Shown: positions 31,203 through 57,358 of the stretch, piece after piece | How positions within the stretch are numbered: position 1 is the stretch's first letter | Layout of the letters: each line of letters opens with the position of its first letter | Made by a program: the position numbers and the translations under genes | Assembly (NCBI GenBank): GCA_903889245.1 | Contig: CAISWQ010000028.1 | Location: 70,677 to 134,676, forward strand | Reading direction: 5' to 3' | Length of the DNA: 64,000 bases | Source: an uncultured Lentisphaerota bacterium | GTDB taxonomy: Bacteria; Verrucomicrobiota; Kiritimatiellia; CAIQIC01 | The notes under the pieces: model-generated | Seen by the model: the letters and a program-made list of their open reading frames with translations, nothing else | Told to the model about the DNA's origin: nothing | Database searches by the model: none

Positions 31203-32798
31203 ATGGGTCTGTTCAGCAATAAATGCCCGAAGTGCGGATATGACGTGAGCAAGAAGGCGCGGATCTGCAGCCAGTGCGGCGCGCCGGCGCCGGGCGGCTG
31301 GTGGCGCTGCCCGAACCAGAAATGCAACCAGTGGATCGGCAACGAGTCGAACTTCTGCCCCTACTGCAAGACGCCGACGCATGTGGCGTCGCGCGAGTCG
31401 GTGGCGGGCGGCCGCTGGCAAAAGTCGCCGGACACGTTCGCGGAGCGCTTCGAGGTCAACGACATCAAGCGGCTCATCGAGCAGGGCCTGATCATCGAGC
31501 AGGGCACGGCGGCCATCTTGCTGGATGGCGGGGCGTTCAAGGACGTGCTCGGTCCGGGCACGCACAATCTCGACAGCCTCGCGCACAAGATCAACAACTG
31601 GGGCTCGCCGCCGCCGCGGACGGTGGTGCTGGTGGATGCGGGCGATGTGGTGCTGCCGCTGCACGTGGAGGGCCTGCGGTCGGCCGAGCAATATCCGCTG
31701 GAGCTGTTCGCCGAGATGCGGCTGCGCTTTGCCGAGAAGGGCGCGGCGATGTTCCTGGAGAACATGCTCAAGAACAAGCCGCGGTTCACCTATGAGGAAC
31801 TCGCGACGCAGATGAAGGGCGAGATCTGGTCGCTGGCGCAGGACTTCTGCACCAAGGCCACGGTGGCCGATTTGGTCAAGGACCCGGAGCGCCGGCTGCG
31901 GCTGGAAGACACGATGCAGAGGGAATTGCAGAAGGTGCTGGAGCGGTGCGGCCTCGAGATCATCCGCGTCGGCGCGGTGGAGTTCGTCGGCAAGGAATAT
32001 GAGGCGGAGCGCGCGCGGACCGGCGAGCTGGAACACAAGCGGCGGATGTTCGAGTTCGATCAGCGCCTGCGCGAGCTGGCGGCGTCGGACCGGATGGGGC
32101 AGCTCAAGACCGAGGACGAGCTGGCGACCTATGTCCGGCAGATGGCGCAGGAGCGGCAGATCAGCACGGCCAAGTGCGAGCAGGAAGTGGCGCTGCTCAA
32201 GATGGTGCAGAGCCAGGAGCTCGAAGCCAAGGATGTGGCCTTCCGGCTGCAGCAGCAGATGCAGCAGACCGCCCACGAGATCAACCTCAAGGTCAAGTGG
32301 GATGACTACAGCTTCGACAAGCTGGTGAAGGAAGCGCGGGCGCAAGCGGAGGCGCGCCGGATCGCGTTCGGGCAGGAAACGGCCGAGGTGGATCAGGCCC
32401 TGAAGTGGCGCGAGACGAAAAACCGCGAGAACGAGCGCAACCTGCGCGAGCGGCGCGAGGCCCTGCGCGGCGCCAGCCTGCTGGAGTTGATCGCGCTCGA
32501 GGATGACCCCGAGAAGCGCAAGGCGCTGCTGGCCCTGAACGAGCAGGAGGCGCGGCGTGGCCTGACGCCCGACCAGATCCTGGCGCTGGCGGCCGAGAAG
32601 TCGCCGGCGATTGCCGAGGCGCTGGCGCGGCAGATGGGCCGCAGCCAGGAGGAGATCCGCAAGGCGCAGGAGGAGGCCGCGCGGGCTCAACGGGAGAGCG
32701 CCGAGCGTTCCGAGCGGATGGGCAAGGAAGGCCTGGAGGCCGCCAAGGAGATCGGCAAACACATCACGCCGACGAGCAACCAGCAGATCATCAAATAG
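31203..32798 (+). CDS. Double zinc ribbon - SPFH/band-7 (flotillin-like) domain - long coiled coil
   Basis: N-terminus has CPKCG...CSQCG and CPNQKC...CPYC. IIEQGTAAILLDGGAFKDVLGPGTHNL and ...GLEIIRVGAVEF fit SPFH topology, and a charged coiled coil follows. Confidence 0.65.
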   Translation: MGLFSNKCPKCGYDVSKKARICSQCGAPAPGGWWRCPNQKCNQWIGNESNFCPYCKTPTHVASRESVAGGRWQKSPDTFAERFEVNDIKRLIEQGLIIEQGTAAILLDGGAFKDVLGPGTHNLDSLAHKINNWGSPPPRTVVLVDAGDVVLPLHVEGLRSAEQYPLELFAEMRLRFAEKGAAMFLENMLKNKPRFTYEELATQMKGEIWSLAQDFCTKATVADLVKDPERRLRLEDTMQRELQKVLERCGLEIIRVGAVEFVGKEYEAERARTGELEHKRRMFEFDQRLRELAASDRMGQLKTEDELATYVRQMAQERQISTAKCEQEVALLKMVQSQELEAKDVAFRLQQQMQQTAHEINLKVKWDDYSFDKLVKEARAQAEARRIAFGQETAEVDQALKWRETKNRENERNLRERREALRGASLLELIALEDDPEKRKALLALNEQEARRGLTPDQILALAAEKSPAIAEALARQMGRSQEEIRKAQEEAARAQRESAERSERMGKEGLEAAKEIGKHITPTSNQQIIK

Positions 32799-32828: not shown

Positions 32829-34457
32829 ATGCCTGATGGCGCAATATGGTTCGAGTGTCCGAACGCGGCCTGCAAATATAAGTTGAACCGGGCTGAAGTA
32901 GCGAAGCTGTGCCCGCAATGCGGGACAGATTTGACGGCGCTGCTGGCGGCGCTGGATGCGGGCGCGCCCGTCGAGTCGGCGGGCGTGCCACAGCCTCCGC
33001 CGCCACCCCCACCCCAGCCGGAGCGCGCGCCGCCTCCGGCGGGGCAGGAGGCGAAGCCCGTAGTTCGCGAGGGGCCAGCGGGCAGCTTCACCATACCCAC
33101 CATCCCCACCCCGGCGACACCTGTCCCCGTTACGGAGCGCGATGCGCCCGCCACGGTGGAGTCGCGGCCGCCCCCGATACCGGCCACGCTACGGGTGGAA
33201 AATCCACGGGCCGCGGCGGGCGCCGCCAGTGATCATGGCTGCGCCGAGCTGCTGGTGGAATATAACAACGCGCTGATCTTCATCGTGGGCTGCAAGCTGA
33301 ATTTTGAATTCCAGGTGACGCCGCAGGTCGAGGGTATCTCCAACGTGCGGATCGAGATCAAGGACGCCGACAAGCAGGCGGTGATCGCGACCCAGCATCT
33401 GGACCACCGCCTGGAGATGGGGCAGCGCGAAAAGTTGCCGATGGCCTTCCGGCCGGACGCGCAGCACGAAGGCGAGATGAATTGCGACATCACACTCTCC
33501 TTCGCCTGGCAAGGCTCGCGGCACGTTTATCGCGCGCGCCGGAAGACGCACTTTGTACTTCGCGCCACTGAATCAGCCGACAAGGTGCTCGACACCTTGA
33601 ACATCACCCTGAACCAGAATCTGGACAAGGCGCATGCCAATGATATCCGTGTGTACATGGATGACGTGATGGGGAAGCTGCCCCAGCGCAGCCAGTATCG
33701 GATCAACTTCGAGCAGGTCAAACTGCCGCCGCAGTGGGAGCCGTTGCGCTTGACGGCGCTCGCGCCGCGGCCGACGGCGGCGCGCGCGCTGACACTGTGC
33801 TTCCCGATGCAGCGCATCCACCTGCTGCCCGATTCCCAGGTCCGGGTGGGGCGCAGCCGGGAGAACGAACTGGTGGCACGGATACCGACCGGGAGCCGGG
33901 AAGACAATCAGCGCATCCACAATTTCCACTGCCAGATTTTGCGGGTGGAGAACGAGGTGTTCATCAAGGATGGCGGCGCCTATCCCGAGGGTTTCCGCGC
34001 CAGCTCCAACGGTACGTTTGTCAATGGCGAGCAGCTTGCGCCGGAGGGTGAGTGCAAGGTGCAGCCCAACAAGACGGTCGTGCTGTCCTTGAGCGATCAG
34101 AACTCCGACGACCGGCGCATCTTCGCCCTGAAGATGCGGCTGTGGCGGCGGATGGATATCCAGGAGGGGATCAGCCCGGCCTGCGGCAAGGGCGCGCCCG
34201 AGGACCTCGTGGCGTTGACCATGCAGGCACTGCGCGATCCGCAGCACTGGTTTGTGTTGCTGTGGCGGCAGTTCCCCCTGGAGAAGATTTGCGGGCGTGA
34301 TTATAGCGGGCTTTGCCTGTGCAAAGAGCCGCTGGGCTTCCTGGTGCAACACGCGGGGCTTTGCGATCCGCTGGAGCCCGGCCGCGAGTTGGAGATCGGT
34401 GGGCAGATCATCCAGGTCGCGCGCTATGAGAAGCCGTGGGTTTCAACTGTGCGGTAG
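32829..34457 (+). CDS. Zinc ribbon - Pro-rich linker - FHA-domain protein
   Basis: N-terminus has CPNAACKY...CPQCG. The FHA core is GRSRENELVARIP...HNFHCQILRVENEVFIKDGGAYPEGFRASSNGTFVNGEQL. FHA binds phospho-Thr, which is consistent with partnering the neighbouring kinases. Confidence 0.75.
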   Translation: MPDGAIWFECPNAACKYKLNRAEVAKLCPQCGTDLTALLAALDAGAPVESAGVPQPPPPPPPQPERAPPPAGQEAKPVVREGPAGSFTIPTIPTPATPVPVTERDAPATVESRPPPIPATLRVENPRAAAGAASDHGCAELLVEYNNALIFIVGCKLNFEFQVTPQVEGISNVRIEIKDADKQAVIATQHLDHRLEMGQREKLPMAFRPDAQHEGEMNCDITLSFAWQGSRHVYRARRKTHFVLRATESADKVLDTLNITLNQNLDKAHANDIRVYMDDVMGKLPQRSQYRINFEQVKLPPQWEPLRLTALAPRPTAARALTLCFPMQRIHLLPDSQVRVGRSRENELVARIPTGSREDNQRIHNFHCQILRVENEVFIKDGGAYPEGFRASSNGTFVNGEQLAPEGECKVQPNKTVVLSLSDQNSDDRRIFALKMRLWRRMDIQEGISPACGKGAPEDLVALTMQALRDPQHWFVLLWRQFPLEKICGRDYSGLCLCKEPLGFLVQHAGLCDPLEPGRELEIGGQIIQVARYEKPWVSTVR

Positions 34458-35252: not shown

Positions 35253-35275
35253 AAAAGAAACCAAAGGAGCTGACC

Positions 35276-36364
35276 ATGAAACGCATGATGTGGCTGATGA
35301 TTCTCGCGGCGGGCCTGTTGGCCTCCCGTAGCCCGGCGGCCTTCAACGATGACGTGCGCCAGGCATTCCAAGGCGCGGTGGCCGATGCCCAACAGGACTT
35401 GAAAGGCAGCGGCTTGCCGGCCGGCGAGCCGATCGCGCTGCTGCCGATTGCCGGCGACCAGGGCGACTACGTCTATGGCCTGCTGAAGAACGCCGTCACG
35501 GCGGCGGGCCTGACCTGCGTGGAAGGCAAGAGCGACCCGTTCTGGAACGAGGTCATGGAGGAGGTCAAATTCGACACGCTGAAGGGCGACATCCTCGACG
35601 CCAAGACGCTCGTCGCCTTCGGCAAGCTGAAGGCTACCCGCATCCTGCTCTATGGCACGGTGCGCGACTTCTCCGCGGAAGGCTCGAAGGTGTACGTCGA
35701 GCTGGAGCTGCACGCCAGCTCCGTGGCGACCAAGCAACACCTCTGGGGCCGCTGCTTCGGCAAACGCCATTACTTGGCCAAGGATGTCGTGGGCCTGATC
35801 CAGTTGGACGACAAGGTCAAGGAAGTGCTGGCCAAGGCCTTCGACCGCGGCACCGAGTCGCTCAAGGCTGCGCCCAAGGTCAAGAACGTCCGCACCGTGG
35901 CCATGGTGCCGCTGGCGGGTGACATTGACCGCTATGCCAGCGGCCTGGCCGAGGCCATGGTGAGCAAGACTGCCGCGCTCTTCCCGAAGAACCTCGACAT
36001 CAAGACGCTGGCCGAGGCGCGCTCCCTCCTGCGCGACCAGCCACAGCAGGCCGACGCCGTCCTCTACGGCGCCGTCCGCGACCTCTCCCGCAAGCAGGAG
36101 ACGCCCGGCATCTTCTCCAATACCGACCGCCTGCAGGCGGTGATCCAGGTGAAGATCGAGAGCGCCAAGGATCACGAAGTGCTGTGGAGCGAGCAGCTCT
36201 ACGTCTCGGAACTCTATCAGCAGACCATCCCGACCGAATCCAAGGTCATCATGATCTGGCAGTGGCTGCGCGCGCATCCCCTCGTGCCGCTCGGCATCCT
36301 CGGCGGCATCATCATCCTGATCGTGTTGCGGATGCTGATCAAGGCCGGTACCCGCGTGCGGTGA
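35276..36364 (+). CDS. Secreted protein with tandem-duplicated internal domain and C-terminal TM anchor
   Basis: Signal peptide MKRMMWLMILAAGLLASRSPAA and C-terminal ILGGIIILIVLRMLIK. The internal repeat is ALLPIAGDQGDYVYGLLKN...LYGTVRDF versus AMVPLAGDIDRYASGLAEA...LYGAVRDL. The six-frame ORF 34436..36364 is a read-through artefact. Confidence 0.7.
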   Translation: MKRMMWLMILAAGLLASRSPAAFNDDVRQAFQGAVADAQQDLKGSGLPAGEPIALLPIAGDQGDYVYGLLKNAVTAAGLTCVEGKSDPFWNEVMEEVKFDTLKGDILDAKTLVAFGKLKATRILLYGTVRDFSAEGSKVYVELELHASSVATKQHLWGRCFGKRHYLAKDVVGLIQLDDKVKEVLAKAFDRGTESLKAAPKVKNVRTVAMVPLAGDIDRYASGLAEAMVSKTAALFPKNLDIKTLAEARSLLRDQPQQADAVLYGAVRDLSRKQETPGIFSNTDRLQAVIQVKIESAKDHEVLWSEQLYVSELYQQTIPTESKVIMIWQWLRAHPLVPLGILGGIIILIVLRMLIKAGTRVR

Positions 36365-36381
36365 AGCACGGAGGTGTTGTC

Positions 36382-36939: not shown

Positions 36940-37058
36940 ACAGGTTTTCCAAGCATTGGAAACTTTCAGGTCCGGTTTTCCAGGGATTGGAAAATCTCAC
37001 GGAAATTTTTCCGAGCCTTGGAAAAAAGCGCCGGATTTTTTCCAAGCCTCGGAAAAGA
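36940..37058. repeat. Array of four TTTTCCAAGnCTTGGAAAA palindromes, spacing 31 bp
   Basis: Palindrome centres at ~36954, 36985, 37016 and 37047. Confidence 0.85.
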
Positions 37059-37084
37059 GGCGGGCGGACCTTGCACGGCAGAAA

Positions 37085-37185
37085 GATGGTGGACAGAAAA
37101 ATGGGAGACAGAAAAAGCAGAGGACGCGACGGAGCGCGTCCCTCCACGCGCGTCTTTGGGAGGGCCACGCTCCGTCGTGGCCGCG
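37085..37185. repeat. MITE-like repeat copy (short form: module + hairpin A 37122..37141 + hairpin B 37163..37182)
   Basis: Sequence identity; a further solo hairpin B lies at 36894..36913. Confidence 0.8.
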
Positions 37186-37254
37186 CTGGCTTTCCGTCTG
37201 GCGTCTTGGCGGTTGTCCTGCGGTCGGGGGCGATAGAAATGCAAAGGTGGCACC

Positions 37255-40143: not shown

Positions 40144-40214
40144 GGGCTTTGTTTACTCTTTTCCCTTTTACCCGCCGCGCGGAGCGCGGCGGCTGCGGCC
40201 AGAAAATGAAGGGC

Positions 40215-40380
40215 AGAAAGATGGTGGACAGAAAAAGCAGAAGAAACGAACAGCGAAGGCGGGAAGGCGCGAAGCCATTCCTTTCTTCGCTTCCTCCCGT
40301 CTTCGCTGTTTTCCGGCGGACGCGACGGAGCGCGTCCCTCCACGCGCGCCTTTGGGAGGGCCACGCTCCGTCGTGGCCGC
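40215..40380. repeat. MITE-like repeat copy (long form: module + hairpin A 40318..40337 + hairpin B 40359..40378)
   Basis: Sequence identity. Confidence 0.8.
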
Positions 40381-40384
40381 TCTG

Positions 40385-40464
40385 GCTTTCCGTCCTTGGC
40401 GCGCTTGGCGTCTTGGCGGTTGTCCTTCGGTCGGGAACGATAGGAATGCAATGGTGGCGCCATG
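40385..40464 (+). promoter_or_regulatory. Conserved kinase 5' leader copy (GGTGGCGCCATG start-codon palindrome)
   Basis: See 12300..12385; cgataggaatgcaatggtggcgccatgaaaccatttgag. Confidence 0.6.
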
Positions 40465-43275: not shown

Positions 43276-43308
43276 AGCGAGATCAACGACTGATGTTGCG
43301 ACAGGAAC

Positions 43309-44211
43309 ATGACCATGAAAACCGATGACGCCATGTGTTGCATCTGCGGGCGGGAGCTGCCGAACCGGTATGCGGCGGGGCCGTTGCAGCGGTGTGGCGC
43401 GCCGGACTGCGAGGCGCGGTTCTGCGACCTGCATTGGCAGCGGAGTAATCAGCGCTGTCCACGGCATGGCTATCAAGCGAAGGAGCCGACGAGCGCAAAG
43501 CCGGCATTTGCCTCGGCCACCAAGTTCGGCAACACGGAGCAAGCGGCGCGTGTGAATCCACAGCCGGAGCAGCCCAAGATTTCGCTGCTGCGCGCGGCTC
43601 TGGCCAGGTTATGGCCGGCGTTGGTGGCGCTGTTCCGCAAGGTGAAGAAGGATCGCTCGCCGGAAGGAATGCTGCGCACCGTGGAGGCCGCGCTGGCGGC
43701 CAACACCGCGCGCCGCGAGCCGCTGGGCGCAGAGTTGGAAAAGCAATTCCACGAGATCGCCGCCAAAAAGAAACTCTACGAAGCCGCGCCCGCCGCCCGC
43801 AAGGCGGCGTTGGAGGGCGAACTCAAGTTGCTGCTCGCCGGCTATCGCGCCAGGGAGAACGAGTTCCAGCGCCTGCTCGAAAACGAAGTCACGCTGACGC
43901 AGGTCAAGGGGAGGCTCAACGAGCTCATCGCGCAGAAACTCGCCGGCGTGACCGAGGGCGACCTGGACAAGCTGACGGACGAAGTCACCGAGGCTGTGGC
44001 CTTGGCCGAAGAGCGGCAGGATGCCGCGCGCGATCTGGAGCAGGCCGGTCGCCGCCGTGAGCAGGAGAGCGCCCGCGAAGCCTTCGCCGAGGAACTCCAA
44101 GCCTTTGCCGAGTCCGCTCCATCTACCCCCACTGCCCCAGCCGCCGAACCGCCCGCCCCCGCCGTGGAGCAACCTCCGCCAACCAAAGAACCAGAACCGC
44201 CGGAGGGGTGA
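43309..44211 (+). CDS. Zinc-finger + coiled-coil protein (paralog of 49472..50164)
   Basis: N-terminus has CCICG...CGAPDCEARFCDLHW..CPRHG. The coiled coil LAANTARREPLGAELEKQFHEIAAKKKLYEAAPAARK...VTEGDLDKLTDEV aligns with the ESCRT-operon protein LAANTTKREALAAALEKQFATIAAKKKAYETAPPARK...VTEAAIDQLIDEV. Confidence 0.7.
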   Translation: MTMKTDDAMCCICGRELPNRYAAGPLQRCGAPDCEARFCDLHWQRSNQRCPRHGYQAKEPTSAKPAFASATKFGNTEQAARVNPQPEQPKISLLRAALARLWPALVALFRKVKKDRSPEGMLRTVEAALAANTARREPLGAELEKQFHEIAAKKKLYEAAPAARKAALEGELKLLLAGYRARENEFQRLLENEVTLTQVKGRLNELIAQKLAGVTEGDLDKLTDEVTEAVALAEERQDAARDLEQAGRRREQESAREAFAEELQAFAESAPSTPTAPAAEPPAPAVEQPPPTKEPEPPEG

Positions 44212-44261
44212 CACATGGAGAGCTTGAAACCAAACTCCATCCCAGACAGGAGCTATGCAAC

Positions 44262-46451
44262 ATGAATGACATCTATTTCCTCTGTCCTCATTGCCGGCAA
44301 CGCTTGGAAGCCCCGGCGGATTTGGCAGGCATGAGCATCAACTGCCCCTCGTGTGACAAGAGGATCAAAATACCCGACATGCCTGTGCAGCCATCACAGG
44401 TTTCCAATTTGAGTGGCGCCAAGACCTTGGTGGGCGCCATGCCATCGGAGCAAACCAATCTGGTCGGCCGGCTGTTCGGCAAGGACCTGGTGAAATCCAA
44501 GATTGCCGAGGGCGGGATGGGCTCGGTCTGGCTGACCGAGCACACAGAACTGAAGGTGGCCCGCGCCCTCAAGACCATGCCGGAAGGATTTGGTTCCCAG
44601 CCGGAACTGGTGCAACGCTTTCAGCAAGAGGCCAAGATTCTGGCCCATCTGCATCACGCCAACATCGCCCAGATCTATGACTTCGGTTGCGAGGAAGGCG
44701 TCTATTACTTCATCATGGAATATCTGCCCAATGGCAGCTTACGCTCCCGGCTGCGTCCCGCCGGGACACGGTTGCCTTGGAGAAATGCCCTGAAGATTTT
44801 GGACGAAGTCTGCGCCGGCTTGGAGTACGCCCACGGCAAAGGCATTGTCCATCGCGACATCAAACCCGAGAACATCCTGCTTGATGAGCAAGGCCATCCG
44901 AAGATTGCCGATTTTGGTCTGGGGAAGATCTTGCACGACGTTGTGCGGAGCCAATCCGGCTCACTCATCATGGGCCAGCAGGCCGTGGTCAAAGATGTGA
45001 ATTTGAGTGCGCTGCCCACCCTGCGCCCGGGCTCGCCGCCACCGCTCAAGCCGGGAGGTTCATCCGCTCCCGCCAACATGACCATGATGGGACAGGTCGT
45101 CGGCACAATGGACTACATGAGTCCCGAACAACGCCGGGGTGCGGAAGTTACACCGCAGAGCGACATCTATTCGCTGGGTGTCACTTTCTACGAGATGTTG
45201 ACGGGCGAGTTGCCGTCGGGGATGGACATGCCCAGCGAACGCGGCTGTGACTGCCCGCCGGGCGTGGACGCGCTCGTCAAACGGATGCTCGCACCACCAG
45301 ACAGACGCTTCCGTTCGGCACATGAGGTCCGCGAGGCCATCGCTTTGGCAGATCGTCAGCCAGCCGCACCGCCACTCCCGAAGGAATCCGGGAGTGGGTG
45401 GAAGATTCTTGCAGGATTTCTGATTGGTTTTCTCATCGTGGCTCTTATCGGGATTGGTTTTGCCCTCTATCAACGTTCAGTGCGGAAAGGCTCGACTACG
45501 GGGCCAGAAGCAGATGCCGCTAGCAAGGGAAGCTCAAGGGCGATAGCGGGGCGCGACAGCGTTAAGCGAGAACGTTACACGGCACTCCTCTCCCAAGCCA
45601 AACTCGCAGAGGCCGACCGGCAATGGCAAACCGCGGTGAATGCCTACGAGGCGGCGATCGCACTGTTCGACGAACCGGAAGCTCGTTCCGGCCTCTCCCG
45701 CGTCGCGAACACGCGGGACATGGAACAGGTGGCCGCCCGCAAGAGTGCGGATTATAGCCGTCTTCTCGCGGATGCAGAGCAGGCGGAAAGGAATGGCGAC
45801 CTCTTGACTGCACAGAAAGCATACGAGCGTGCCGCCGCAGCCGCGCCTACGGAACAAGATCGTTTGCAAGCAGAGACAAAGGCCCGGAAAGCTAGCGACA
45901 GCATTGCTAATCAGAAAAAGAAGGCCGTCTTTGATAGCCTCGTACAACAAGCCAGAGACGCCGAGAGCAAGAAAGACTGGCAGGGGGCCGTGGACATCTA
46001 CATGAAGGCCGCGGCGGCGGCACCCGACGAAACCTTGGCGACACAGGTACGTGCCCGCGAAAGCCAACTTGTGGCCTTCATAACAAGCCAAGCCCAGATA
46101 AAGAAGCAGGTGAATCAAACCATGACACTTTGTTATATTATCTGGTCTAGCAAAATTGAAAGGCGCTATCCAGCATCTGATCAGCTTGTTGACGGTACGG
46201 GGAATGTACTTGGGGATATAAGTTTCGAGCTATATCAAGATGATAATTCGGATTGGCACGTAGGTTTATTTTTGAAAAAAGGAAAAAACAAAACAAGGAT
46301 ATGTGATTTTGAACCCGGCGATGTAATTGGACAAACTAGAACGGGCCAAGTAGAAGGGGTATCCTTTTCTTGTAGGGTGATTGAGATTAATCGTATGGGA
46401 TCCTCAACACTCATTGAGAAGCTAACTGTTCAGGTTACGATTAGGCGGTGA
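44262..46451 (+). CDS. Ser/Thr protein kinase with N-terminal zinc ribbon, TM segment, TPR-like region and novel C-terminal domain
   Basis: N-terminus has CPHCRQ...CPSCDKR. Kinase motifs AEGGMGSVW, ARALKTM, HRDIKPENILL, DFGLGK and MSPEQRRG. An AGGAG ribosome-binding site lies upstream of the ATG at 44262; the track ORF uses a GTG at 44208. Confidence 0.85.
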   Translation: MNDIYFLCPHCRQRLEAPADLAGMSINCPSCDKRIKIPDMPVQPSQVSNLSGAKTLVGAMPSEQTNLVGRLFGKDLVKSKIAEGGMGSVWLTEHTELKVARALKTMPEGFGSQPELVQRFQQEAKILAHLHHANIAQIYDFGCEEGVYYFIMEYLPNGSLRSRLRPAGTRLPWRNALKILDEVCAGLEYAHGKGIVHRDIKPENILLDEQGHPKIADFGLGKILHDVVRSQSGSLIMGQQAVVKDVNLSALPTLRPGSPPPLKPGGSSAPANMTMMGQVVGTMDYMSPEQRRGAEVTPQSDIYSLGVTFYEMLTGELPSGMDMPSERGCDCPPGVDALVKRMLAPPDRRFRSAHEVREAIALADRQPAAPPLPKESGSGWKILAGFLIGFLIVALIGIGFALYQRSVRKGSTTGPEADAASKGSSRAIAGRDSVKRERYTALLSQAKLAEADRQWQTAVNAYEAAIALFDEPEARSGLSRVANTRDMEQVAARKSADYSRLLADAEQAERNGDLLTAQKAYERAAAAAPTEQDRLQAETKARKASDSIANQKKKAVFDSLVQQARDAESKKDWQGAVDIYMKAAAAAPDETLATQVRARESQLVAFITSQAQIKKQVNQTMTLCYIIWSSKIERRYPASDQLVDGTGNVLGDISFELYQDDNSDWHVGLFLKKGKNKTRICDFEPGDVIGQTRTGQVEGVSFSCRVIEINRMGSSTLIEKLTVQVTIRR

Positions 46452-46624: not shown

Positions 46625-46742
46625 AAGTTTCCAAGGGTTGGAAAGTGGAACCCATGCATTTTCCAAGCATTGGAAAATTTTGCGTCGTTCGTTCCAAGCC
46701 CTGGAAAATTCTCCGCCGTTTTTTCCAAACCTCGGAAAACTG
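46625..46742. repeat. Array of four TTTTCCAAGnCTTGGAAAA palindromes, spacing ~31 bp
   Basis: Palindrome centres at ~46636, 46668, 46699.5 and 46730. Confidence 0.8.
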
Positions 46743-46766
46743 CACCTGCGGCAGTGGTGTAGCCCT

Positions 46767-46860
46767 CAACCGAAGCGGAGTTGGCGGAAGGTTTCGTACT
46801 GCTGCAGGAGTTTGTCGGTGCAGGAGGGAGGTTGCGGCCGAGCGCGGCGCGGGCGTCAGC
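46767..46860 (-). repeat. Degenerate direct repeat of the 3' end of the Vps4-like ATPase gene (copy of 47457..47612 with ~70-bp internal deletion)
   Basis: cagccgaagcggagttggcggaaggtttcgta(c/t)tgctg(c/g)aggagtttgtcggtgcaggagg...gcggccgagcgcggcgcg is present at both sites, flanking the relE-phd cassette. Confidence 0.75.
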
Positions 46861-47116
46861 GATACACTTCGCGGCGATGCGCGATCTTGACCACCGTGAC
46901 AAGCAACAGGCGGTCGGCAATGTTGTAGAGAATGCGCCAGTCGCCGACGCGGACGCGCCACAAGTCCACTGGTCCGCGCAGGCGTTTGACGCCCGCCGGC
47001 CGGGGGTTCACGGTCAGGGCGACCATAGCCGTGTAGAGACGGCGGCGCATAACGGAGTCGGCGGCGGCGAGTTCCTTCTCTGCACGGGGATCGAGCTTGA
47101 CGGTGTAGGGCATCAA
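46856..47116 (-). CDS. Type II toxin, RelE/ParE family
   Basis: WRVRVGDWRILYNI...LLVTVVKIAHRREVY is the RelE/ParE consensus. It overlaps the upstream antitoxin by 4 nt. Confidence 0.85.
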   Translation of the reverse strand: MMPYTVKLDPRAEKELAAADSVMRRRLYTAMVALTVNPRPAGVKRLRGPVDLWRVRVGDWRILYNIADRLLLVTVVKIAHRREVYR

Positions 47117-47364
47117 CCCAACCCAAGACGGCGCGCGACGGTTTCCAAGCTAACGGGTTTGACCTTGCCGGCTTGCAGTTCGCGCAGCCGTGCGGTGGCT
47201 TCGCGTACATCCTCGGCATCCTCGACCGCGCGCATCAGCGCGGCGGGAATTAAATAGGCGACCGCCGCGCGGCCCTTGCGGACAGCGACGGGTTCACCTT
47301 TCTCGGCGCGCGCGAGGGCCGCGCCGGGGTGTGTTGTGAACTGTGTCATGGTCAAAGCAGTCAT
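47113..47364 (-). CDS. Type II antitoxin, Phd/YefM family
   Basis: An 83-aa protein MTQFTTHPGAALARAEKGEPVAVRKGRAAVAYLIPAAL, coupled by ATGA overlap to the RelE gene. A perfect 8-bp inverted repeat lies in its promoter. Confidence 0.8.
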   Translation of the reverse strand: MTALTMTQFTTHPGAALARAEKGEPVAVRKGRAAVAYLIPAALMRAVEDAEDVREATARLRELQAGKVKPVSLETVARRLGLG

Positions 47365-47459: not shown

Positions 47460-48584
47460 TCAGCCGAAGCGGAGTTGGCGGAAGGTTTCGTATTGCTGGA
47501 GGAGTTTGTCGGTGCAGGAGGAGGGGATGTTGCGGAAGGCGCTTTCGAGGTCGCCCATGGTCAGCAGCGGGTCGGCGTTGTCGCGGATGCTGCGGCCGAG
47601 CGCGGCGCGCTTGGCGGCGTTGACGACGCCGACGATGTCGCTGCCGGTATAGCCGTTCAGTTTGCCCACCCACGCGGCGGTGTCGAAGCCTTCCTGTAGC
47701 GGCAAACCCTTGAGGTGCATTTGCAGAATGCCGCGCCGCGCGGGTTCATCGGGCAAGCCGATGAAGATTTTCTCGTCGAAGCGCCCGGTGCGGAAGACGG
47801 CCTCATCAATGTCCCATGGTTTGTTGGTGGCGCCGAGGATCAGCAAAACGTTCTGGCTTTCCTCGAAGCCGCCGACATCGGAGAGGAACTGGACGACGAT
47901 GCGGTTATCCACGACGGATTGCCCGCTGCGCTTGGGCAGGAGGCCATCCACGTCGTCGAGGAAGAGCACGGCGACGGGCTGGGACTTGGCGGTCTGGATC
48001 AGGCTGCGCAGGCGTTGCTCGGACTCGCCGTGCCACTTGGAGCGGATTTGCGCGCCGGAGGCGTAGTAGAACGGGGCCTGCAATTCGTGGGCGATGGCCT
48101 TGCCGAGCGTGGTCTTGCCGTTGCCGGGCGGGCCGTAGAGCAGGACGCCGCCGCCGGCCTTGAGGCCGAGCTTCTTCGCCTTCTCGATGTTCTGGAGGGG
48201 ATAGACGACCATCTCGAAGATGGTCTTCTTGGCCTCGGTCATGCCGGCGATCATGTCGAAGGTGACGCTGGGGATTTCGGTGACGAGCCAGTCGGCGTCG
48301 GCACTGCTTGGGCTATCGGCCGGTTCCGCGCCGGGCTTGCCGCCGGATGTTCCGCCCTGACCGCCCTTGAGCGGCTGGCGTTTGAGTTTCTCGGCGATTT
48401 CCAGCCAACCCTCGGCATCCTCGGTGTAACGGGTGGCAATGTGGCCGGCGGTCTGCGCGGCCAGCGCGTAAGCGAATTCAGCGGCCTTGGCGGCGTGGAA
48501 GATGGCGTTGGCGGTGTTGCTATCGCGAATCGCGGCTTCGCACTGTTTCTCGTGTTCCAGTTTTTTATCGAGGAGGAAGCTCAT
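47460..48584 (-). CDS. Vps4-like AAA+ ATPase: N-terminal MIT-like three-helix domain + meiotic-clade AAA domain
   Basis: Walker A LLYGPPGNGKTT, Walker B LFLDDVD, the clade-diagnostic SKWHGESE (Vps4 SKWLGESE), and LILGATNKPWDIDEAVFRTGRFDEKIFIGLPDE (Vps4 [29 protein letters not shown]). The N-terminal 70 aa are helical and end in WLEIAEKLKRQ, which is MIT-like. Confidence 0.85.
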   Translation of the reverse strand: MSFLLDKKLEHEKQCEAAIRDSNTANAIFHAAKAAEFAYALAAQTAGHIATRYTEDAEGWLEIAEKLKRQPLKGGQGGTSGGKPGAEPADSPSSADADWLVTEIPSVTFDMIAGMTEAKKTIFEMVVYPLQNIEKAKKLGLKAGGGVLLYGPPGNGKTTLGKAIAHELQAPFYYASGAQIRSKWHGESEQRLRSLIQTAKSQPVAVLFLDDVDGLLPKRSGQSVVDNRIVVQFLSDVGGFEESQNVLLILGATNKPWDIDEAVFRTGRFDEKIFIGLPDEPARRGILQMHLKGLPLQEGFDTAAWVGKLNGYTGSDIVGVVNAAKRAALGRSIRDNADPLLTMGDLESAFRNIPSSCTDKLLQQYETFRQLRFG

Positions 48585-48598
48585 GGGATCTCCGCGGT

Positions 48599-49093
48599 TC
48601 AGCCATGCTCCGCCAGCATCTCGGCTTCCAAGGTCGCCAGGTTGAGCGGCAGCGTGCCGGAATGGCGACGGACGGAGAACAGGTTACGGCGGCGGCTACA
48701 TAAAAAATGGAGCGTGGCTTTGCGCGGGTCGTATTCCTCGACGACGATGCGCGTCACCCGCACAACAGTACCGGGGTGTTCGGGGCATTGCCACGGTCTG
48801 CGGCGGGCATAGGAGAGCAGACGGATCAGGCGGCTCTCGGAGAAGACTTCGCAGCGGTCGCCTTCGCAGACAAGCAGCGCGCGCTTGCCGCAGGCGGAGC
48901 ATTCGTAGCTGGCCAGCTTCTGGCCGGTGGTGAGCAGGAAGGTGCTGCCACTGCATTCCGGGCAGGCAAATTCGCGTACAGCGCCACTCATCAGGCGGGT
49001 CAGGATGGCTTGCCGCTCAGCCGGTGTATAGCGCTGCTCAAAATCATTCCACGCGGCATTGGGCATGGGCTCAAGCATGGACCTGCTCCTCAA
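48599..49093 (-). CDS. Zinc-ribbon protein of unknown function (ESCRT-like operon member)
   Basis: CPECSGS...YECSACGKR and a further Cys/His cluster CPEHPG. It is co-oriented and overlaps the upstream gene; the start is uncertain (49093 or 49078). Confidence 0.55.
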   Translation of the reverse strand: MRSRSMLEPMPNAAWNDFEQRYTPAERQAILTRLMSGAVREFACPECSGSTFLLTTGQKLASYECSACGKRALLVCEGDRCEVFSESRLIRLLSYARRRPWQCPEHPGTVVRVTRIVVEEYDPRKATLHFLCSRRRNLFSVRRHSGTLPLNLATLEAEMLAEHG

Positions 49094-49466
49094 GCGTGGC
49101 GCTCTGTTTCCGGCTGGTCATGCGCAGCACCAATTGGCCCGCCGCATCCCAGCGCCATGTTGCGGAGGCGGCCTCTGTCGCCGGCATAGTGGGCGGTGGG
49201 GGTAGGTGCGTCGGCGCAACCATCAAGGCCGCGCGCACCGCCGCCGCGCCCTTCGCCTGTTCCTGAATTTCGCGCCGGGCCTTCTCCCGTTTTTCCCGCA
49301 CCTCGGCGAGGATCAGCACGACAATGACCAGCACCACGACGCCCAGCATGATGGTCGGCAGATGATTGCCTGCGACCAGATTGATGACGCTGCCCACGGC
49401 GCTGAAGACCAGCACGATGGTGCTCAAGGCGGTACGCAGCATCTCGGCTGGCTTGGTGGCTTCCAT
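49071..49466 (-). CDS. Small two-TM membrane protein (ESCRT-like operon member)
   Basis: Two hydrophobic helices (LSTIVLVFSAVGSVINLVAG; IMLGVVVLVIVVLILA) followed by a charged helix REKREKARREIQEQAKG. Confidence 0.55.
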   Translation of the reverse strand: MEATKPAEMLRTALSTIVLVFSAVGSVINLVAGNHLPTIMLGVVVLVIVVLILAEVREKREKARREIQEQAKGAAAVRAALMVAPTHLPPPPTMPATEAASATWRWDAAGQLVLRMTSRKQSATLEEQVHA

Positions 49467-49471
49467 GACCT

Positions 49472-50164
49472 TTAAGGTTCCTGGTTACGCTCGCGGATGG
49501 GAGCGGCGGGTGTCTTCTGGGCTGGCGCGCTTTCCGGGGCGCGCGGTGTTTCTTCCGTGGCAGCGGCCAGCTCCTCGAAGCCGGCCAGTTGCTCGGTGAA
49601 CGATTCGCGGTCGGACTCGCGCTCGCGCCGGCGCCCCGCTTTTTCCAGGTCAGCCACCGCGCTGACGCGGCCCTCGGCCTCCTCGGCGCGCTCATCCACT
49701 TCGTCAATCAACTGGTCAATCGCGGCCTCGGTAACGCCGGCCATACCGTAGGCGGTGACCTCGCGCATCCGGCCGAGCACCTGGGTCAGCACCTGCTCGT
49801 TCTCGACCAGAACCTTGAACTCGCCCTCGGCGGAGCGATAGGCGGCGAGCAGGCCCTTCAACTCCGCTTCGAGCACACGCTTGCGGGCGGGCGGCGCGGT
49901 TTCGTAGGCCTTCTTCTTGGCGGCGATGGTCGCGAATTGTTTTTCCAGCGCCGCGGCGAGCGCCTCGCGTTTCGTGGTGTTGGCCGCGAGGGTGCCGGCG
50001 ATGGACTGCTGAATCGCCTCGGGCGATTTGTTCTTCCGCCATTGGCGATAGAGTTGGACGGCGTTGCCACCGAGTTTCCTGACGGCCGTCAAGGTGGCTT
50101 GCAAGGCCTTTCTGGTTGTCTCTTGCGCGGCTTTTTGTTCGGGTGCGGGTTGGTTCTCGCTCAT
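49472..50164 (-). CDS. Coiled-coil protein (paralog of 43309..44211 without the zinc finger)
   Basis: MSENQPAPEQ... with a GGGAG ribosome-binding site 6 nt upstream of the ATG at 50164. Paralogous over ~150 aa to the zinc-finger coiled-coil protein. The track ORF extends to 50473, but that region lacks coding character. Confidence 0.7.
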   Translation of the reverse strand: MSENQPAPEQKAAQETTRKALQATLTAVRKLGGNAVQLYRQWRKNKSPEAIQQSIAGTLAANTTKREALAAALEKQFATIAAKKKAYETAPPARKRVLEAELKGLLAAYRSAEGEFKVLVENEQVLTQVLGRMREVTAYGMAGVTEAAIDQLIDEVDERAEEAEGRVSAVADLEKAGRRRERESDRESFTEQLAGFEELAAATEETPRAPESAPAQKTPAAPIRERNQEP

Positions 50165-50192
50165 GTCGTCTCCCTGCGGGCTGGCCCGCCGT

Positions 50193-50819
50193 TCACTTGC
50201 CGTCCAGCAGATTGCGCACGCGTTCCTGTCCGGCCTTGATGCGGGCATCCACCTCGGCGCCGGCTTGGGCCGTGTTGCCACCGACCTCCGCGGCGGCCTC
50301 CTGCTCCAGTTGTTTGCCAAGATCATCCAGCGAAGGAATGTGATCCTCCAGGCCGGCGCTGGCGCCCTCGGTTTCCTTGGTATAGAGCTTGTCCCAGAAG
50401 CGGTCGGCATCCACCTGCTCGCCGAGCAGATCTTGCGCCTCATCGAAGACATCCGCCACGCGCTCGGGGTCAATGCGGACCACTTTGTTCATGGCGGAGA
50501 GCGCGTCGGCGAACTGCTGGTCCGACTTCGCCGCCTGCATCTTGGTAAAATACTGCTCGAAGACCCAGCGCTTCTGTTCCAGCTTGGTCATCAGCACCTG
50601 GCTCGCGCGGTAGCTGATGAGCGACCGCTGCGCCGCGGCCTTCTGCCCAGCCTTCATGTAGTCGCGCGCCTGTGCCCAGATCTTGGAGGAGTCCTTCTCC
50701 ATCTGTTTGATCCGGTCCTTCACGTCCTCAATGGCGTTCTCCGCCTGTCGGAAGGCATGCCGCTGGTCGCGCCGCGCTTCCCGTTCCCGTTCTTTTTTGC
50801 TCTTAAACAAGAGGCCCAT
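50193..50819 (-). CDS. ESCRT-III / Snf7-CHMP-like protein (PspA/Vipp1 superfamily)
   Basis: N-terminus MGLLFKSKKE versus CHMP2A MDLLFGRRKT and CHMP3 MGLFGKTQEK. The alpha1-alpha2 hairpin DYMKAGQKAAAQRSLISYRASQVLMTKL aligns with DAAKKGQKDVCIVLAKEMIRSRKAVSKL. ADALSAMNKVVRIDPERVADVFDEAQDLL aligns with AKAMKAAHDNMDIDKVDELMQDIADQ of CHMP4. The acidic C-terminus ends in a helix that may be a MIM. Confidence 0.75.
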   Translation of the reverse strand: MGLLFKSKKEREREARRDQRHAFRQAENAIEDVKDRIKQMEKDSSKIWAQARDYMKAGQKAAAQRSLISYRASQVLMTKLEQKRWVFEQYFTKMQAAKSDQQFADALSAMNKVVRIDPERVADVFDEAQDLLGEQVDADRFWDKLYTKETEGASAGLEDHIPSLDDLGKQLEQEAAAEVGGNTAQAGAEVDARIKAGQERVRNLLDGK

Positions 50820-50879: not shown

Positions 50880-51898
50880 AACACTCCTGCGTGATTGAAC
50901 GGCAGCCGGTGCGAAGACGATCTCCGGCAACATGGCGACCGCGACACGTTTCTGGTCGAAGTCGGCGTGACTGCAAAGCGCGGTCAGCGTCGGGTTGCCG
51001 TAGCCAACCTGGTCTTGGATGGCACCAGCGGCCCGCGGCTGACCGTACAGCGGTTGAGGAAGGAATGTCGCAGGCTATGAAAGCCTTTGCGGCGGGCTTT
51101 GCGCGGCGTCAGTTCGATCCGACCGGGCTTGAGGGCAGACCAGCGCAGCGTGCGCACGTCGCCCAGGCACAGACCGGTGTAGAGACCGATGGCGAGCATA
51201 TAGCGCATGGTCCCGCGCGCCTTGCGGCAGCGCGTCGTCAACTCGTCGGGCGTGAAGTTCAGGCGCCCTTGCGTTTCCTTTTCCAGTTTGCGGATGTGCA
51301 ACCAGGGATTGTCCAAGAGACCTGCTTTCACGCGCAGCGTGGTGAACACCGAGCGCAGGAACTGAAGGTGACCGTTGAACGAGCGTGGCGAGAATTTGCC
51401 TCGCCAGAGATTCCGCGCGTAGTCGTCGGCATGCGCGTCACTGACATCGTGCAAGCGTTGGACGTGAGGGGCCTTCCCCCAACCGACAAAGCGCTGCCAT
51501 GCGGCGCGGTAGCCGGCGATGGTGGTCGCGCAGGGTTTGCCCTTCTGCGGCGAGGCGAGCCATTCTTTCCAGGTGTCATCGAGCGTGATGGGCGTCAACG
51601 CCATCGCGCTAAGCTGGCGCGACAAGCGCAGGCGCATCTCAATCTGTGCCTGGGTGGGCAGGCGGCCGATGCACTCCTGCAACACGATGAACTGTTTGAT
51701 GATCGTGCCTTCACCGCGCGCTGCGGCCTTGGCCGCGTTGGCGATGTCCGATGCGGAGTTGCGATCCGTTTCGCCCGTGCTGACCCAGGCTTGCTGGAAA
51801 AACGGTTGCTCGCCGCGGGCGGGGCGGGCCGCTACACTCACGCGCCTGATGCGGATTTTTTTCCAGAGCCTCGTGTGGGCCGTGGCCGTGCTGGCCAC
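50880..51898 (-). pseudogene. Tyrosine recombinase/integrase remnant (frameshifted; catalytic Tyr region displaced into the +1 frame and possibly mutated)
   Basis: The SAM-like N-domain and catalytic-domain motifs (R box in GLCLGDVRTLRWS; HSLRHSF) sit in one frame that stops at 50984. The expected C-terminal I..LGH...T..Y.H region (IQDQVGYGNPTLTALCSHA) is readable only in the +1 frame, which ends near 50880. The N-terminus is uncertain: the ORF reaches 51898 via GTG, but an ATG start at 51637 would avoid the overlap with the lipoprotein gene. Confidence 0.6.
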
Positions 51899-57184: not shown

Positions 57185-57259
57185 CGCCAACCGTGGCGCG
57201 GTAGCCAAGTGGTAAGGCGGAGGTCTGCAAAACCTCTATGCATCGGTTCGAATCCGATC
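57185..57259 (+). tRNA. tRNA-Cys (GCA)
   Basis: Cloverleaf folded by hand: acceptor stem GGCGCGG/CCGCGCC, D arm GCC..GGC, anticodon stem GAGGT/ACCTC with loop CTGCAAA (anticodon GCA), T arm ATCGG-TTCGAAT-CCGAT, discriminator T, encoded CCA. Confidence 0.85.
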
Positions 57260-57358
57260 CGCGCCTCCAGCCGCACTCTCGTCCCCGTTATTTCTTTATC
57301 CATCAGCGGATCACTGCGGCTCATCGGCAAACGAACGCGTCATGGTATGGCTGGCGGA

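Follow-up and report, generated by a model that had tools for sequence, protein, structure and literature searches.

The question raised by this locus is whether a bacterium can encode a Snf7-type ESCRT-III protein together with a dedicated AAA ATPase, a kind of system stated to be absent from bacteria by both Makarova 2024 (PMC10936438) and a 2025 review (PMC7619361). The window (the whole stretch of 64,000 nucleotides that was analyzed) contains five co-oriented open reading frames on the minus strand, A to E, all of them present at the coordinates given in the original prediction:

50193..50819, minus strand: gene A, 208 aa, assigned to the Snf7/CHMP4/CHMP6-type (B-type) ESCRT-III proteins
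49472..50164, minus strand: gene B, 230 aa from ATG, coiled-coil protein, probably a divergent second ESCRT-III-like subunit
49071..49466, minus strand: gene C, 131 aa, small protein with two hydrophobic segments, lineage-restricted accessory
48599..49078, minus strand: gene D, 159 aa from ATG, zinc-ribbon protein, lineage-restricted accessory
47460..48584, minus strand: gene E, 374 aa, single-domain classical AAA ATPase

These genes form a tight operon, with intergenic distances of 28 nt (A-B), 5 nt (B-C), and 14 nt (D-E), and a C-D distance of −8 nt if D starts from the ATG at 49078 or −23 nt if it starts from the TTG at 49093, to which its reading frame extends (164 aa; public gene calls give 159 aa). 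No promoter-like site was found on the minus strand within the block and one terminator-like site was (49068-49049), the count of such sites in the region being no higher than the shuffle expectation. The same five proteins are called in identical order on independent public contigs. The predicted order and spacing are borne out as well, whereas the five-gene layout as a conserved unit is not: among 25 related loci, all from metagenome-assembled genomes (MAGs) of Verrucomicrobiota sensu lato (Kiritimatiellia and Lentisphaeria), C and D recur in just two or three, C having homologs only in L007, L008, and L031 and D only in L007 and L031. Gene C shows Kyte-Doolittle windows above 1.6 from about residues 9-12 and 40-42, and gene D has the zinc-ribbon cysteines CPEC...CSAC with weak Pfam zinc-ribbon matches.

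Gene A begins with MGLLFKSKKE, a basic MGxLF motif, and has a basic N-terminal half (residues 1-100, net charge +10, pI 10.1), an acidic middle (residues 101-185, net charge −13, pI 4.1), and a conserved C-terminal helix (...RIKAGQERVRNLLDGK); the CHMP-like start and charge polarity that had been proposed for it are thus both seen. It matches Pfam Snf7 with E = 4.5e-6 (26.9 bits, cut-off 27.3), and a PDB profile search ranks yeast Snf7 (E = 0.005, in register over 20-178) and Heimdall ESCRT-IIIB highest. When the family profile was compared by hhalign, the Snf7/CHMP4B/CHMP6 set gave 92.9% (residues 1-137 on 1-144, at about 18% identity) and CHMP2A/1B 9.7%. More than 345 homologs were found, some of which NCBI names 'Snf7 family protein'. 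From these profile matches we assign gene A to the Snf7/CHMP4/CHMP6 type, as anticipated. PspA was also considered as its identity and ruled out, since Pfam PspA_IM30 gives no match and hhalign against E. coli PspA gives 0.9% vs 92.9% for the Snf7 set. As read from the sequence, the C-terminal helix does not match canonical MIM1 spacing.

Gene E (Pfam AAA, 1.3e-35) opens with a three-helix TPR/MIT-like N-domain (residues 2-69); a variable, disordered linker (75-100) then leads to the AAA domain, and the protein closes with a C-terminal helix (359-373). Its AlphaFold2 model has a pLDDT of 78.5, with 83-93 for the N-domain and below 50 for the linker, and a comparison of 23 homologs shows the N-domain to be conserved and the linker to be variable. 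The modeled domain architecture is Vps4-like, with the Vps4/CdvC domain order and a KW pore loop in the AAA domain. The AAA domain itself, in both sequence and predicted structure, is nearest to the D2 domain of Cdc48/p97: phmmer domain scores are 161 bits for p97 D2 and 149 for D1 vs 122-136 for Vps4, katanin, and CdvC, NCBIfam gives 197 bits for CDC48 vs 171 for CdvC, and the best foldseek match of the predicted structure is p97/Cdc48 D2. The second region of homology, FRTGRFDEK, is of Cdc48 type, without the two-residue deletion typical of Vps4, CdvC, and katanin. The earlier placement of gene E in the meiotic/Vps4 clade is not supported, nor is the Vps4-like second region claimed with it; the pore-loop signature on which that placement drew is present as SKWHGESE, but a motif comparison finds SKWxGESE in Cdc48-like D2 domains too. 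What gene E has in common with Vps4 is limited to the NxPW motif, common to Vps4, CdvC, and katanin, and a weak Vps4_C signal (14.6 bits, and 22.7 bits in the relative P0222; cut-off 21.3). A neighbor-joining tree, a crude distance method in which one reference sequence was a reconstruction, groups gene E with Vps4/CdvC at a support of about 52%. Gene E may be either a true Vps4 ortholog or an independently recruited Cdc48-like ATPase.

The N-domain had been described as MIT-like. A three-helix domain is indeed confidently predicted, but neither Pfam nor the PDB profile search gives an MIT match in the gene E family. Remote signals are weak (hhalign vs MIT 3-26%; in sister ATPases Pfam MIT is the best match of the N-domain, at E = 0.001 over its full length), and homology to MIT is not significant. 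The tandem-AAA relative P0312 shares this N-domain; the gene before it ends in ...INAGRDALKKLMEGNK, which resembles the C-terminal motif of gene A and is possibly a docking motif.

Further members of the locus lie around the operon:

31203..32798, plus strand: SPFH/Band_7 protein with N-terminal double zinc ribbon (Band_7 2.8e-10, Zn_Ribbon_1, DZR)
32829..34457, plus strand: FHA-domain protein (FHA 1.7e-8) with N-terminal zinc ribbon CPNAAC...CPQC
35276..36364, plus strand: X, about 362 aa, signal-peptide-like N-terminus and C-terminal TM anchor, no Pfam match
37255-40143, plus strand: Ser/Thr kinase with FGE-sulfatase domain
40462-43275, plus strand: Ser/Thr kinase with LamG and LRR domains
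43309..44211, plus strand: zfB, 300 aa, fusion of a Cys/His zinc finger with an ESCRT-III-like coiled coil of the gene B type
44262..46451, plus strand: membrane Ser/Thr kinase with N-terminal zinc ribbon, one TM, and extracytoplasmic TPR-like repeats
50984-51898, adjoining gene A: putative integrase-like remnant, no Pfam match

Gene B is 55% identical to residues 97-270 of zfB and is its paralog without the zinc finger. It has no sequence matches in Pfam or PDB and fold searches returned non-specific results, while hhalign against Snf7/CHMP4B/CHMP6 gives 52.6% (E = 1.4e-4, colinear across 151 columns) vs 0.35% against PspA. Its AlphaFold2 model (pLDDT 76.5) places helices at residues 48-89, 92-142, 146-181, and 185-194, a predicted layout that is ESCRT-III-like, and gene B is probably a divergent second ESCRT-III-like protein. 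In other genomes zfB is the gene that normally precedes the Snf7-like gene; it occurs in 15 of the 25 loci, immediately upstream of the Snf7-like gene in 11.

The pairing of Snf7-like and AAA genes is conserved, being linked on the same strand in 19/25 loci with gaps often of 6-20 nt; contig ends cut two of the six loci without an adjacent AAA gene. Members recur in the order SPFH-Znr, FHA-Znr, X, zfB, Snf7-like, AAA, and a Ser/Thr kinase often comes next; the neighbors lie on one strand in fixed order (besides zfB, SPFH in 11/25, upstream, FHA in 9/25, and X in 7/25). X recurs between the FHA gene and zfB. Kinases adjoining the module in L001 and L031 have the same FGE-sulfatase domain as the one listed above, and the kinase at 44262..46451 (Pkinase 1.3e-44; TM at about residue 397; 729 aa in the public call) has its ortholog immediately 3′ of the AAA gene in L015 (54% identity across residues 13-651). 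Every recurring member is found in the window, where the Snf7-like to AAA block is inverted with an inserted toxin-antitoxin cassette. Across loci, the identity of the Snf7-like protein to its counterpart in the window varies together with that of the AAA protein (r = 0.77, n = 19), which fits joint inheritance. Since the GC of the block is ordinary and the synteny is family-wide, it is not a recently acquired accessory island, in contrast to the possible horizontal acquisition suggested earlier; only the local layout is rearranged.

Archaeal ESCRT-III/Vps4 systems (CdvABC; euryarchaeal 'Main', Halo_FHA, and Meth_adaptin; PMC10936438) likewise pair Snf7-family genes with a single-domain AAA protein with a small helical N-domain, and the euryarchaeal loci have accessories of the same types, namely membrane Ser/Thr kinases, FHA proteins, and SPFH proteins with coiled coil and zinc ribbon. 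The module differs in its bacterial hosts, in having no recognized CdvA, winged-helix (ESCRT-II-like), or adaptin-like protein, in the Cdc48-type second region of homology of gene E and the lack of a significant MIT match, and in its signature partner zfB. Gene E is linked to an ESCRT-III gene, which is the second criterion for calling Vps4 in PMC10936438. Compared with eukaryotic Snf7/CHMP4, Vps20/CHMP6, and VPS4, gene A aligns from residue 1 (MxxLF) through the core and has the charge polarity of B-type ESCRT-III, and gene E shares the KW pore loop, NxPW motif, and C-terminal helix; however, identity of gene A is about 18% with no canonical MIM1/MIM2, gene E is without the β-domain insert, and ESCRT-0, -I, and -II components were not recognized here. 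Bacterial PspA/Vipp1 (IM30) systems, some of whose PspA loci have an SPFH partner (PMC10936438), differ from the module in that genes A and B give no PspA_IM30 signal and in that PspF, the ATPase that partners PspA, is a sigma-54 activator and not a classical AAA unfoldase (PMC7619361). From Cdc48/p97/VAT, with which it shares the RxGRFD second region, gene E is set apart by its single AAA domain, a helical rather than double-psi-barrel N-domain, NKPW instead of NRPD in the sensor-1 region, and linkage to an ESCRT-III gene. Ravi et al. 2024 (PMC11237479) described Vps4-like AAA ATPases in Verrucomicrobia and further phyla, and in candidate phyla PspA with a tandem-AAA protein ('MIT+Vps4-AAA') and a membrane-anchored divergent Snf7, suggesting ATP-dependent remodeling. 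Their Verrucomicrobia example (Opitutus ACB74714.1), however, has a TPR-6TM protein instead of snf7, their Snf7 setting involves tandem AAA and PspA, and the cluster of soluble Snf7-type protein, zfB, single AAA, and SPFH/FHA/kinase is not in that work.

We consider it fairly probable that the locus encodes a bacterial ESCRT-III-type membrane-remodeling module, so far known only from Verrucomicrobiota sensu lato (Kiritimatiellia, Lentisphaeria) MAGs, in which gene A, one or two divergent coiled-coil proteins of ESCRT-III-like type (B, zfB), and a dedicated AAA ATPase with a single AAA domain are encoded together. The MGxLF/basic N-terminus of gene A would insert into the inner membrane from the cytoplasmic side, and A would co-polymerize with B/zfB into a composite filament. 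A gene E hexamer would use its N-domain to dock on the conserved helix at the C-terminus of A, possibly also on ELAGFD-type tails of B/zfB, and thread subunits through its pore; the filament would thereby turn over and the membrane be deformed, repaired, or severed. A recruitment and phospho-regulatory layer may be provided by the SPFH scaffold and the FHA protein, both with zinc ribbons, together with several membrane Ser/Thr kinases whose sensor domains are extracytoplasmic.

A PspA-like envelope-stress scaffold is an unlikely alternative reading, in which the Snf7-like protein and B would only coat or stabilize damaged membrane, the AAA protein would be a general unfoldase, quality-control enzyme, or regulator rather than a filament remodeler, and the kinases would sense envelope stress. 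The Cdc48/p97 D2 affinity of gene E, the extracytoplasmic sensor domains on many kinases, and the SPFH partners found at some bacterial PspA loci (PMC10936438) all fit it, but gene A is without PspA signal, and gene E has neither the N-terminal barrel nor the second AAA domain of Cdc48, its family-specific small helical N-domain being kept along with the Snf7-like partner.

A conflict or anti-phage role, with the kinases as infection sensors and the Snf7-like/AAA pair as an abortive-infection effector that disrupts membranes and travels on mobile DNA, we regard as quite improbable. The block is flanked by the toxin-antitoxin pair and the integrase remnant, an intact integrase adjoins the AAA gene in L031, and PADLOC returns matches to IetA (E = 2.6e-29) and PD-T4-6 kinases; these PADLOC/NCBIfam matches, however, are generic to the domain (IteA 100.9 bits vs a cut-off of 510), and an IetS-type protease partner is not seen among annotated neighbors. 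Also against it are the kept synteny, with identities of 58-78% over two classes that co-vary between both genes, the ordinary GC, the lack of relatives in viral contigs, and L003, where the pair stands alone in a housekeeping setting beside frr and an amino-acid-kinase-family gene. Coincidental adjacency of two genes serving unrelated processes is hardly credible: it agrees with the six loci without an adjacent AAA gene and the two kinases between both genes in L031, but not with the same-strand linkage in the other 19 loci across Kiritimatiellia and Lentisphaeria.

No published description of a bacterial Snf7-like/AAA module was found in the literature searched, in agreement with the original prediction. 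On the membrane-remodeling reading, PVC-group bacteria would carry the pairing of a filament with a dismantling-type ATPase that recent reviews deny to bacteria.

The locus is built around five open reading frames on the minus strand, all of which are present where the original prediction had placed them and as it described them, with intergenic distances of 28, 5, -8 and 14 nt in the order A-B-C-D-E.

50193-50819, minus strand: ORF, gene A, Snf7-type protein
49472-50164, minus strand: ORF, gene B, coiled-coil protein and paralog of the zinc-finger gene zfB
49071-49466, minus strand: ORF, gene C, protein with two hydrophobic segments
48599-49078, minus strand: ORF, gene D, zinc-ribbon protein; the open frame reaches 49093
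47460-48584, minus strand: ORF, gene E, AAA ATPase

The same five proteins are called in identical order in independent public contigs. No promoter-like site was found within the block on the minus strand, and there is one weak terminator-like site on that strand, the regional count of such sites not exceeding the shuffle expectation.

The protein encoded by gene A is, as judged from its sequence, of the Snf7 type and not a PspA, in agreement with the original prediction. Its only meaningful Pfam match is to Snf7 PF03357 (E 4.5e-6, 26.9 bits, just below the gathering score of 27.3 bits), a match that many A homologs carry as precomputed annotation, and PspA_IM30 gave no match in either A or B (Pfam, E<=1). 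Profile alignment of the A family by hhalign, using reference sequences whose exactness was verified by look-up, gave 92.9% (E 3.6e-7) against Snf7/CHMP4B/CHMP6 with the alignment starting at residue 1, 9.7% against CHMP2A/CHMP1B, and 0.9% against E. coli PspA. In the PDB, the family profile matches yeast Snf7 (E 0.005, in register over 20-178) and Heimdallarchaeal ESCRT-IIIB, with neither PspA nor Vipp1 among the matches. The predicted basic N-terminal half and acidic C-terminal part, a polarity associated with autoinhibition, and the hydrophobic/basic N-terminal motif, a candidate for membrane insertion, are likewise borne out: the net charge is +10 over residues 1-100 and -13 over residues 101-185, and M1, L and F of the MGxLF start align with the invariant M1/L5/F6 of Snf7/CHMP4B/CHMP6. 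The C-terminus is a strongly conserved helix, D.RI.AGQERVKKLLDGK, whose spacing, read from the sequence, does not fit the canonical MIM1. The family counts >345 proteins in the collection searched. Those listed (120) are ~60-100% identical to the window protein, and several, from Kiritimatiellae and Verrucomicrobia MAGs, are named "Snf7 family protein" by NCBI.

The protein encoded by gene B shares 55% identity with the C-terminal two-thirds of the zfB product (43309-44211), which has an extra N-terminal Cys/His zinc finger. We detected 52 members of this family, in two length classes and without Pfam annotation. In the AF2 model of B (pLDDT 76.5), helices 48-89 and 92-142 pair into a long hairpin, past which lie helices 146-181 and 185-194; this predicted layout is that of an open ESCRT-III subunit. 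The B family showed no link to the A family or to PDB sequences, and B scored 0.35% against PspA by hhalign. The N-terminus of zfB (43309-43480; family alignments A4 and A5) conserves the pattern C-x2-C-x12-14-C-x4-5-C-x3-C-x2-H-x7-C-x2-H, the eight ligands of which suggest a binuclear cross-brace zinc finger; its Pfam match is limited to a weak one to zf-CRD. We also noticed repeated ELAGFD-like motifs in the tails of B and zfB.

Scanning a single genome for each GTDB species yielded 24 loci, all of them in MAGs of Verrucomicrobiota sensu lato (Kiritimatiellia, Lentisphaeria/Victivallales and "Verrucomicrobia"), and together with the loci from protein look-up these make 25 non-redundant loci, in which homologs were counted by tblastn. 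The AAA gene has a homolog in 19/25 loci, zfB in 15/25, the zinc-ribbon SPFH gene in 11/25, the zinc-ribbon FHA gene in 9/25 and X, which encodes a signal-peptide-like/TM-anchored protein, in 7/25. The AAA gene mostly lies directly downstream of the Snf7-like gene, and contig ends cut two of the six loci without it; in 11 loci zfB is the gene that immediately precedes the Snf7-like one. The order of the cluster, on a single strand, is SPFH-FHA-X-zfB-Snf7-AAA, then often a Ser/Thr kinase. Even a bare Snf7/AAA pair occurs, between frr, an amino-acid-kinase-family gene and a peroxidase gene (locus L003). Identities of the Snf7-like and AAA proteins to those of the window co-vary (r = 0.77, n = 19), and chance adjacency of the two genes is a less well supported explanation of their pairing.

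The whole conserved set is present in the window, accompanied by kinase genes.

28790-30262, minus strand: Ser/Thr kinase
31203-32798: SPFH protein with zinc ribbon
32829-34457: FHA protein
35276-36364: X, signal-peptide-like/TM-anchored protein
37255-40143: kinase with FGE-sulfatase domain
40462-43275: kinase with LamG and LRR
43309-44211: zfB, zinc-finger paralog of B
44262-46451: kinase with zinc ribbon, one TM and three extracytoplasmic TPR-like repeats

Compared with this conserved order, the Snf7-to-AAA block of the window runs in the opposite orientation to zfB and its kinase, and it holds an extra B copy as well as C and D, from which it follows that the five genes stand in an arrangement specific to their lineage, derived by rearrangement from a larger conserved cluster. 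The expectation that the five genes themselves form a conserved unit thus fails, with C found in 2/25 and D in 1/25 loci, both being additionally found in L031, and it is the larger SPFH-FHA-X-zfB-Snf7-AAA cluster that recurs. GC content at 48-52 kb (0.63-0.65) lies inside the range of the window; this ordinary composition, together with the family-wide synteny, leads us to reject a recent horizontal acquisition of the block.

Several further features of the loci were recorded. The stretch 28790-46451 is an unusually dense series of four Ser/Thr kinases with the FHA protein among them, and the kinase at 44262-46451 has weak MIT/TPR Pfam matches at residues 459-496. In locus L015, from one Lentisphaeraceae MAG, a gene for a 384-aa ATP-binding protein (8907-10061, P-loop GPRQCGKT) lies between the Snf7-like and AAA genes. 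In L031 (2.7-Mb contig, MAG GCA_963852765.1) zfB and the Snf7-like gene are each apparently split by a frameshift (3515-5092), which could be assembly error or decay, and past the split genes come C, D, two kinases and an intact AAA gene. In the window, the 3′ end of the AAA gene is duplicated over the last ~20 codons and the stop, in a 62-nt direct repeat (46766-46827 and 47460-47521, 95% identical) and a 25-nt repeat (46827-46851 and 47585-47609). A Phd/ParE toxin-antitoxin pair (46856-47364), which has a promoter-like site to itself (47402-47374), is flanked by the repeat copies; the AAA gene therefore seems to have received this cassette at its 3′ end and to have had that end restored. Directly upstream of the Snf7-like gene, ORF 50984-51898 (minus strand) appears by eye to be truncated and tyrosine recombinase-like, with no Pfam match, and in L031 an intact Phage_integrase gene lies ~0.8 kb past the AAA gene; taken together, the two suggest repeated recombinase activity at this locus. 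Two tandem 31-nt units (46661-46722, 77% identical) are intergenic, downstream of a kinase gene. The sole tRNA of the window, tRNA-Cys (GCA) at 57195-57269 (plus strand), does not adjoin the integrase remnant.

The ATPase E has 374 aa, with one AAA domain and a helical N-domain. Its homologs, from Kiritimatiellia, Lentisphaerae and Verrucomicrobia MAGs, are full length and 58-100% identical, and in their alignment the 70-residue N-domain is conserved, as is the AAA domain, which terminates in ...IPSSvT..ml.qYe.F...RFG, and the low-complexity linker between them is variable. The AF2 model (pLDDT 78.5) has N-terminal helices at 2-20, 24-44 and 48-69 (pLDDT 83-93), a disordered segment at 75-100, and an AAA fold with a terminal helix (359-373) and no beta-domain insert. 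This is the layout of Vps4/CdvC, in which a flexible linker leads into one classical AAA domain whose pore loop 1 is of the K-W-x-G type. One relative, P0306 (696 aa), has in place of the three-helix domain an N-terminal extension of ~400 residues, the first ~110 of which are hydrophobic and look membrane-embedded.

Raw similarity of the AAA domain favours p97. PDB sequence and Foldseek searches with E have p97/Cdc48 on top, mainly D2, the Foldseek outcome for the full model being dominated by the AAA domain. An exhaustive representative search with the ATPase profile yielded no clean nearest-neighbour list, and per-domain rescoring was needed because multi-AAA proteins with summed scores dominate the best 150 matches. 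The per-domain phmmer bits for E are 161 for p97 D2, 149 for p97 D1, 136 for katanin, 134 for yeast Vps4, 131 for PAN, 129 for CdvC, ~124 for VPS4A and VPS4B and 119 for FtsH; with the E family profile, CdvC (199 bits) is about level with p97 D2 (195 bits). The AAA references are exact by look-up except CdvC, whose reference sequence is not an exact database entry and was retained because it passed the NCBIfam CdvC cut-off (692.6 vs 650).

Motifs and tree give a mixed picture. The SKWHGESE motif of E is as in Vps4, which agrees with the signature claimed for it, but some Cdc48-like D2 domains have SKW[YF]GESE too. After sensor 1, E has GATNKPW, with the NxPW common to Vps4, CdvC and katanin, whereas Cdc48/p97, PAN and FtsH have NRPD. 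A Vps4-like second region of homology had been predicted too; it reads FRTGRFDEK, of the Cdc48 type, without the two-residue deletion that CdvC, Vps4 and katanin carry in the same alignment (RR--RF.KR vs RPGRFD). In a bootstrapped NJ tree the E family is monophyletic (98%) and groups with CdvC, Vps4+katanin and uncharacterised NxPW tandem-AAA proteins, outside p97 D1 and D2, at a support of 52-53% and with crude distances. Pfam Vps4_C scores 14.6 bits (E 0.034) on E against a cut-off of 21.3, and 14.5-22.7 bits in its relatives, one of which exceeds the cut-off. NCBIfam CDC48 scores 197 bits against a cut-off of 803; assignment of E to Cdc48/p97 itself was rejected, as it has one AAA domain and a helical N-domain in place of a double-psi barrel and tandem D1-D2.

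The MIT domain proposed for the N-domain is not recognised by Pfam (no match in the E family at E<=10), nor is there a PDB match to MIT; the N-domain profile (A2) matched shikimate dehydrogenase alone in the PDB, which is spurious. Against a small MIT alignment, hhalign gave 3.4%, colinear across all three helices, and 26% (E 7e-4) with a broadened profile. In the PDB the broadened profile finds TPR motifs; two MIT-domain proteins, calpain-7 (E 0.53) and Atg38 (E 0.44), are weak matches. Tandem-AAA relatives align with the E family profile over N-domain and AAA domain from position 2-3, and the best Pfam match of their N-domains is MIT (E 0.001 over positions 1-64 of 66, and E 0.013), below cut-off. 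P0312 is a divergent tandem-AAA protein that shares the N-domain of E; the gene preceding it ends in ...INAGRDALKKLMEGNK, resembling the terminus of A, which as a lead would count in favour of ATPase docking on C-terminal tails. No ESCRT-III signal is detectable in the small proteins upstream of a distant ATPase (P0422, locus L030). The architecture of E is thus Vps4-like and its N-domain TPR/MIT-like, any MIT homology or Vps4 orthology being tentative.

An ESCRT-III-type remodelling module is the best-supported reading. With its gene content, architecture and linkage documented here, we infer its polymerisation, docking, disassembly and cellular role as follows: A, perhaps with B/zfB, would polymerise on the inner membrane, a hexamer of the AAA protein would use its N-domain to dock on the C-terminal tails and would turn the filament over, and the SPFH, FHA and kinase proteins would provide localisation and phospho-control. 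A PspA-like scaffold next to an unrelated unfoldase is less well supported, given the hhalign values of A and B against PspA/IM30 and the lack of any Pfam match to that family. A defence system is also less well supported: the PADLOC matches (IetA, PD-T4-6) concern generic AAA or kinase domains only, IteA of IetAS scores 100.9 bits on E against a cut-off of 510, no IetS protease partner was seen among the neighbours, and a scan of viral contigs returned no relatives. The original prediction was right in what it observed and is supported in part in its interpretation, the Snf7 type of A standing, the Vps4-like second region not, and the MIT-like domain having no Pfam match. What the remodelling module represents is a bacterial variant of ESCRT-III plus AAA remodeller, of clear interest for ESCRT evolution.

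We found no description of this cluster in the literature searched, which upholds the view that the system was not previously described in bacteria. Makarova et al. 2024 (PMC10936438) define Vps4 by a MIT domain or by linkage to ESCRT genes, and E shows genomic linkage to ESCRT-III genes. Euryarchaeal ESCRT loci (PMC10936438) contain membrane Ser/Thr kinases and phosphatases, FHA proteins, and SPFH proteins with coiled coil and zinc ribbon, the same accessory types as in the bacterial cluster. A Vps4-like ATPase "appears absent in bacteria" according to a 2025 review (PMC7619361). Ravi et al. 2024 (PMC11237479) report Vps4-like ATPases transferred to bacteria including Verrucomicrobia, with a TPR-6TM gene replacing snf7, and a context of PspA, tandem-AAA and membrane-anchored divergent Snf7, both of which differ from the present cluster.

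A conserved bacterial cluster that joins a Snf7-type protein, a dedicated AAA ATPase with Vps4-like architecture and accessory genes of euryarchaeal type opens three questions to direct tests: when ATP-driven ESCRT-III remodelling originated, how Vps4 emerged from Cdc48-like ancestors, since E mixes Vps4 and Cdc48 features, and whether ESCRT-type scission occurs in PVC bacteria. Eukaryote-like membrane traits have long been discussed in PVC bacteria. If the ATPase was independently recruited, the module would still be a notable case of convergence. We think it unlikely that it is vertically inherited, bona fide ESCRT machinery of the PVC lineage sharing ancestry with that of archaea, with composite ESCRT-III filaments, a Vps4-lineage ATPase whose second region of homology would still be of the ancestral Cdc48 type, and control by the same SPFH/FHA/kinase layer. 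Were this true, ESCRT-III/Vps4-type coupling would extend beyond archaea and eukaryotes and would either predate the split or have moved by ancient inter-domain transfer, and the module may drive vesicle/endomembrane formation or division in these bacteria.
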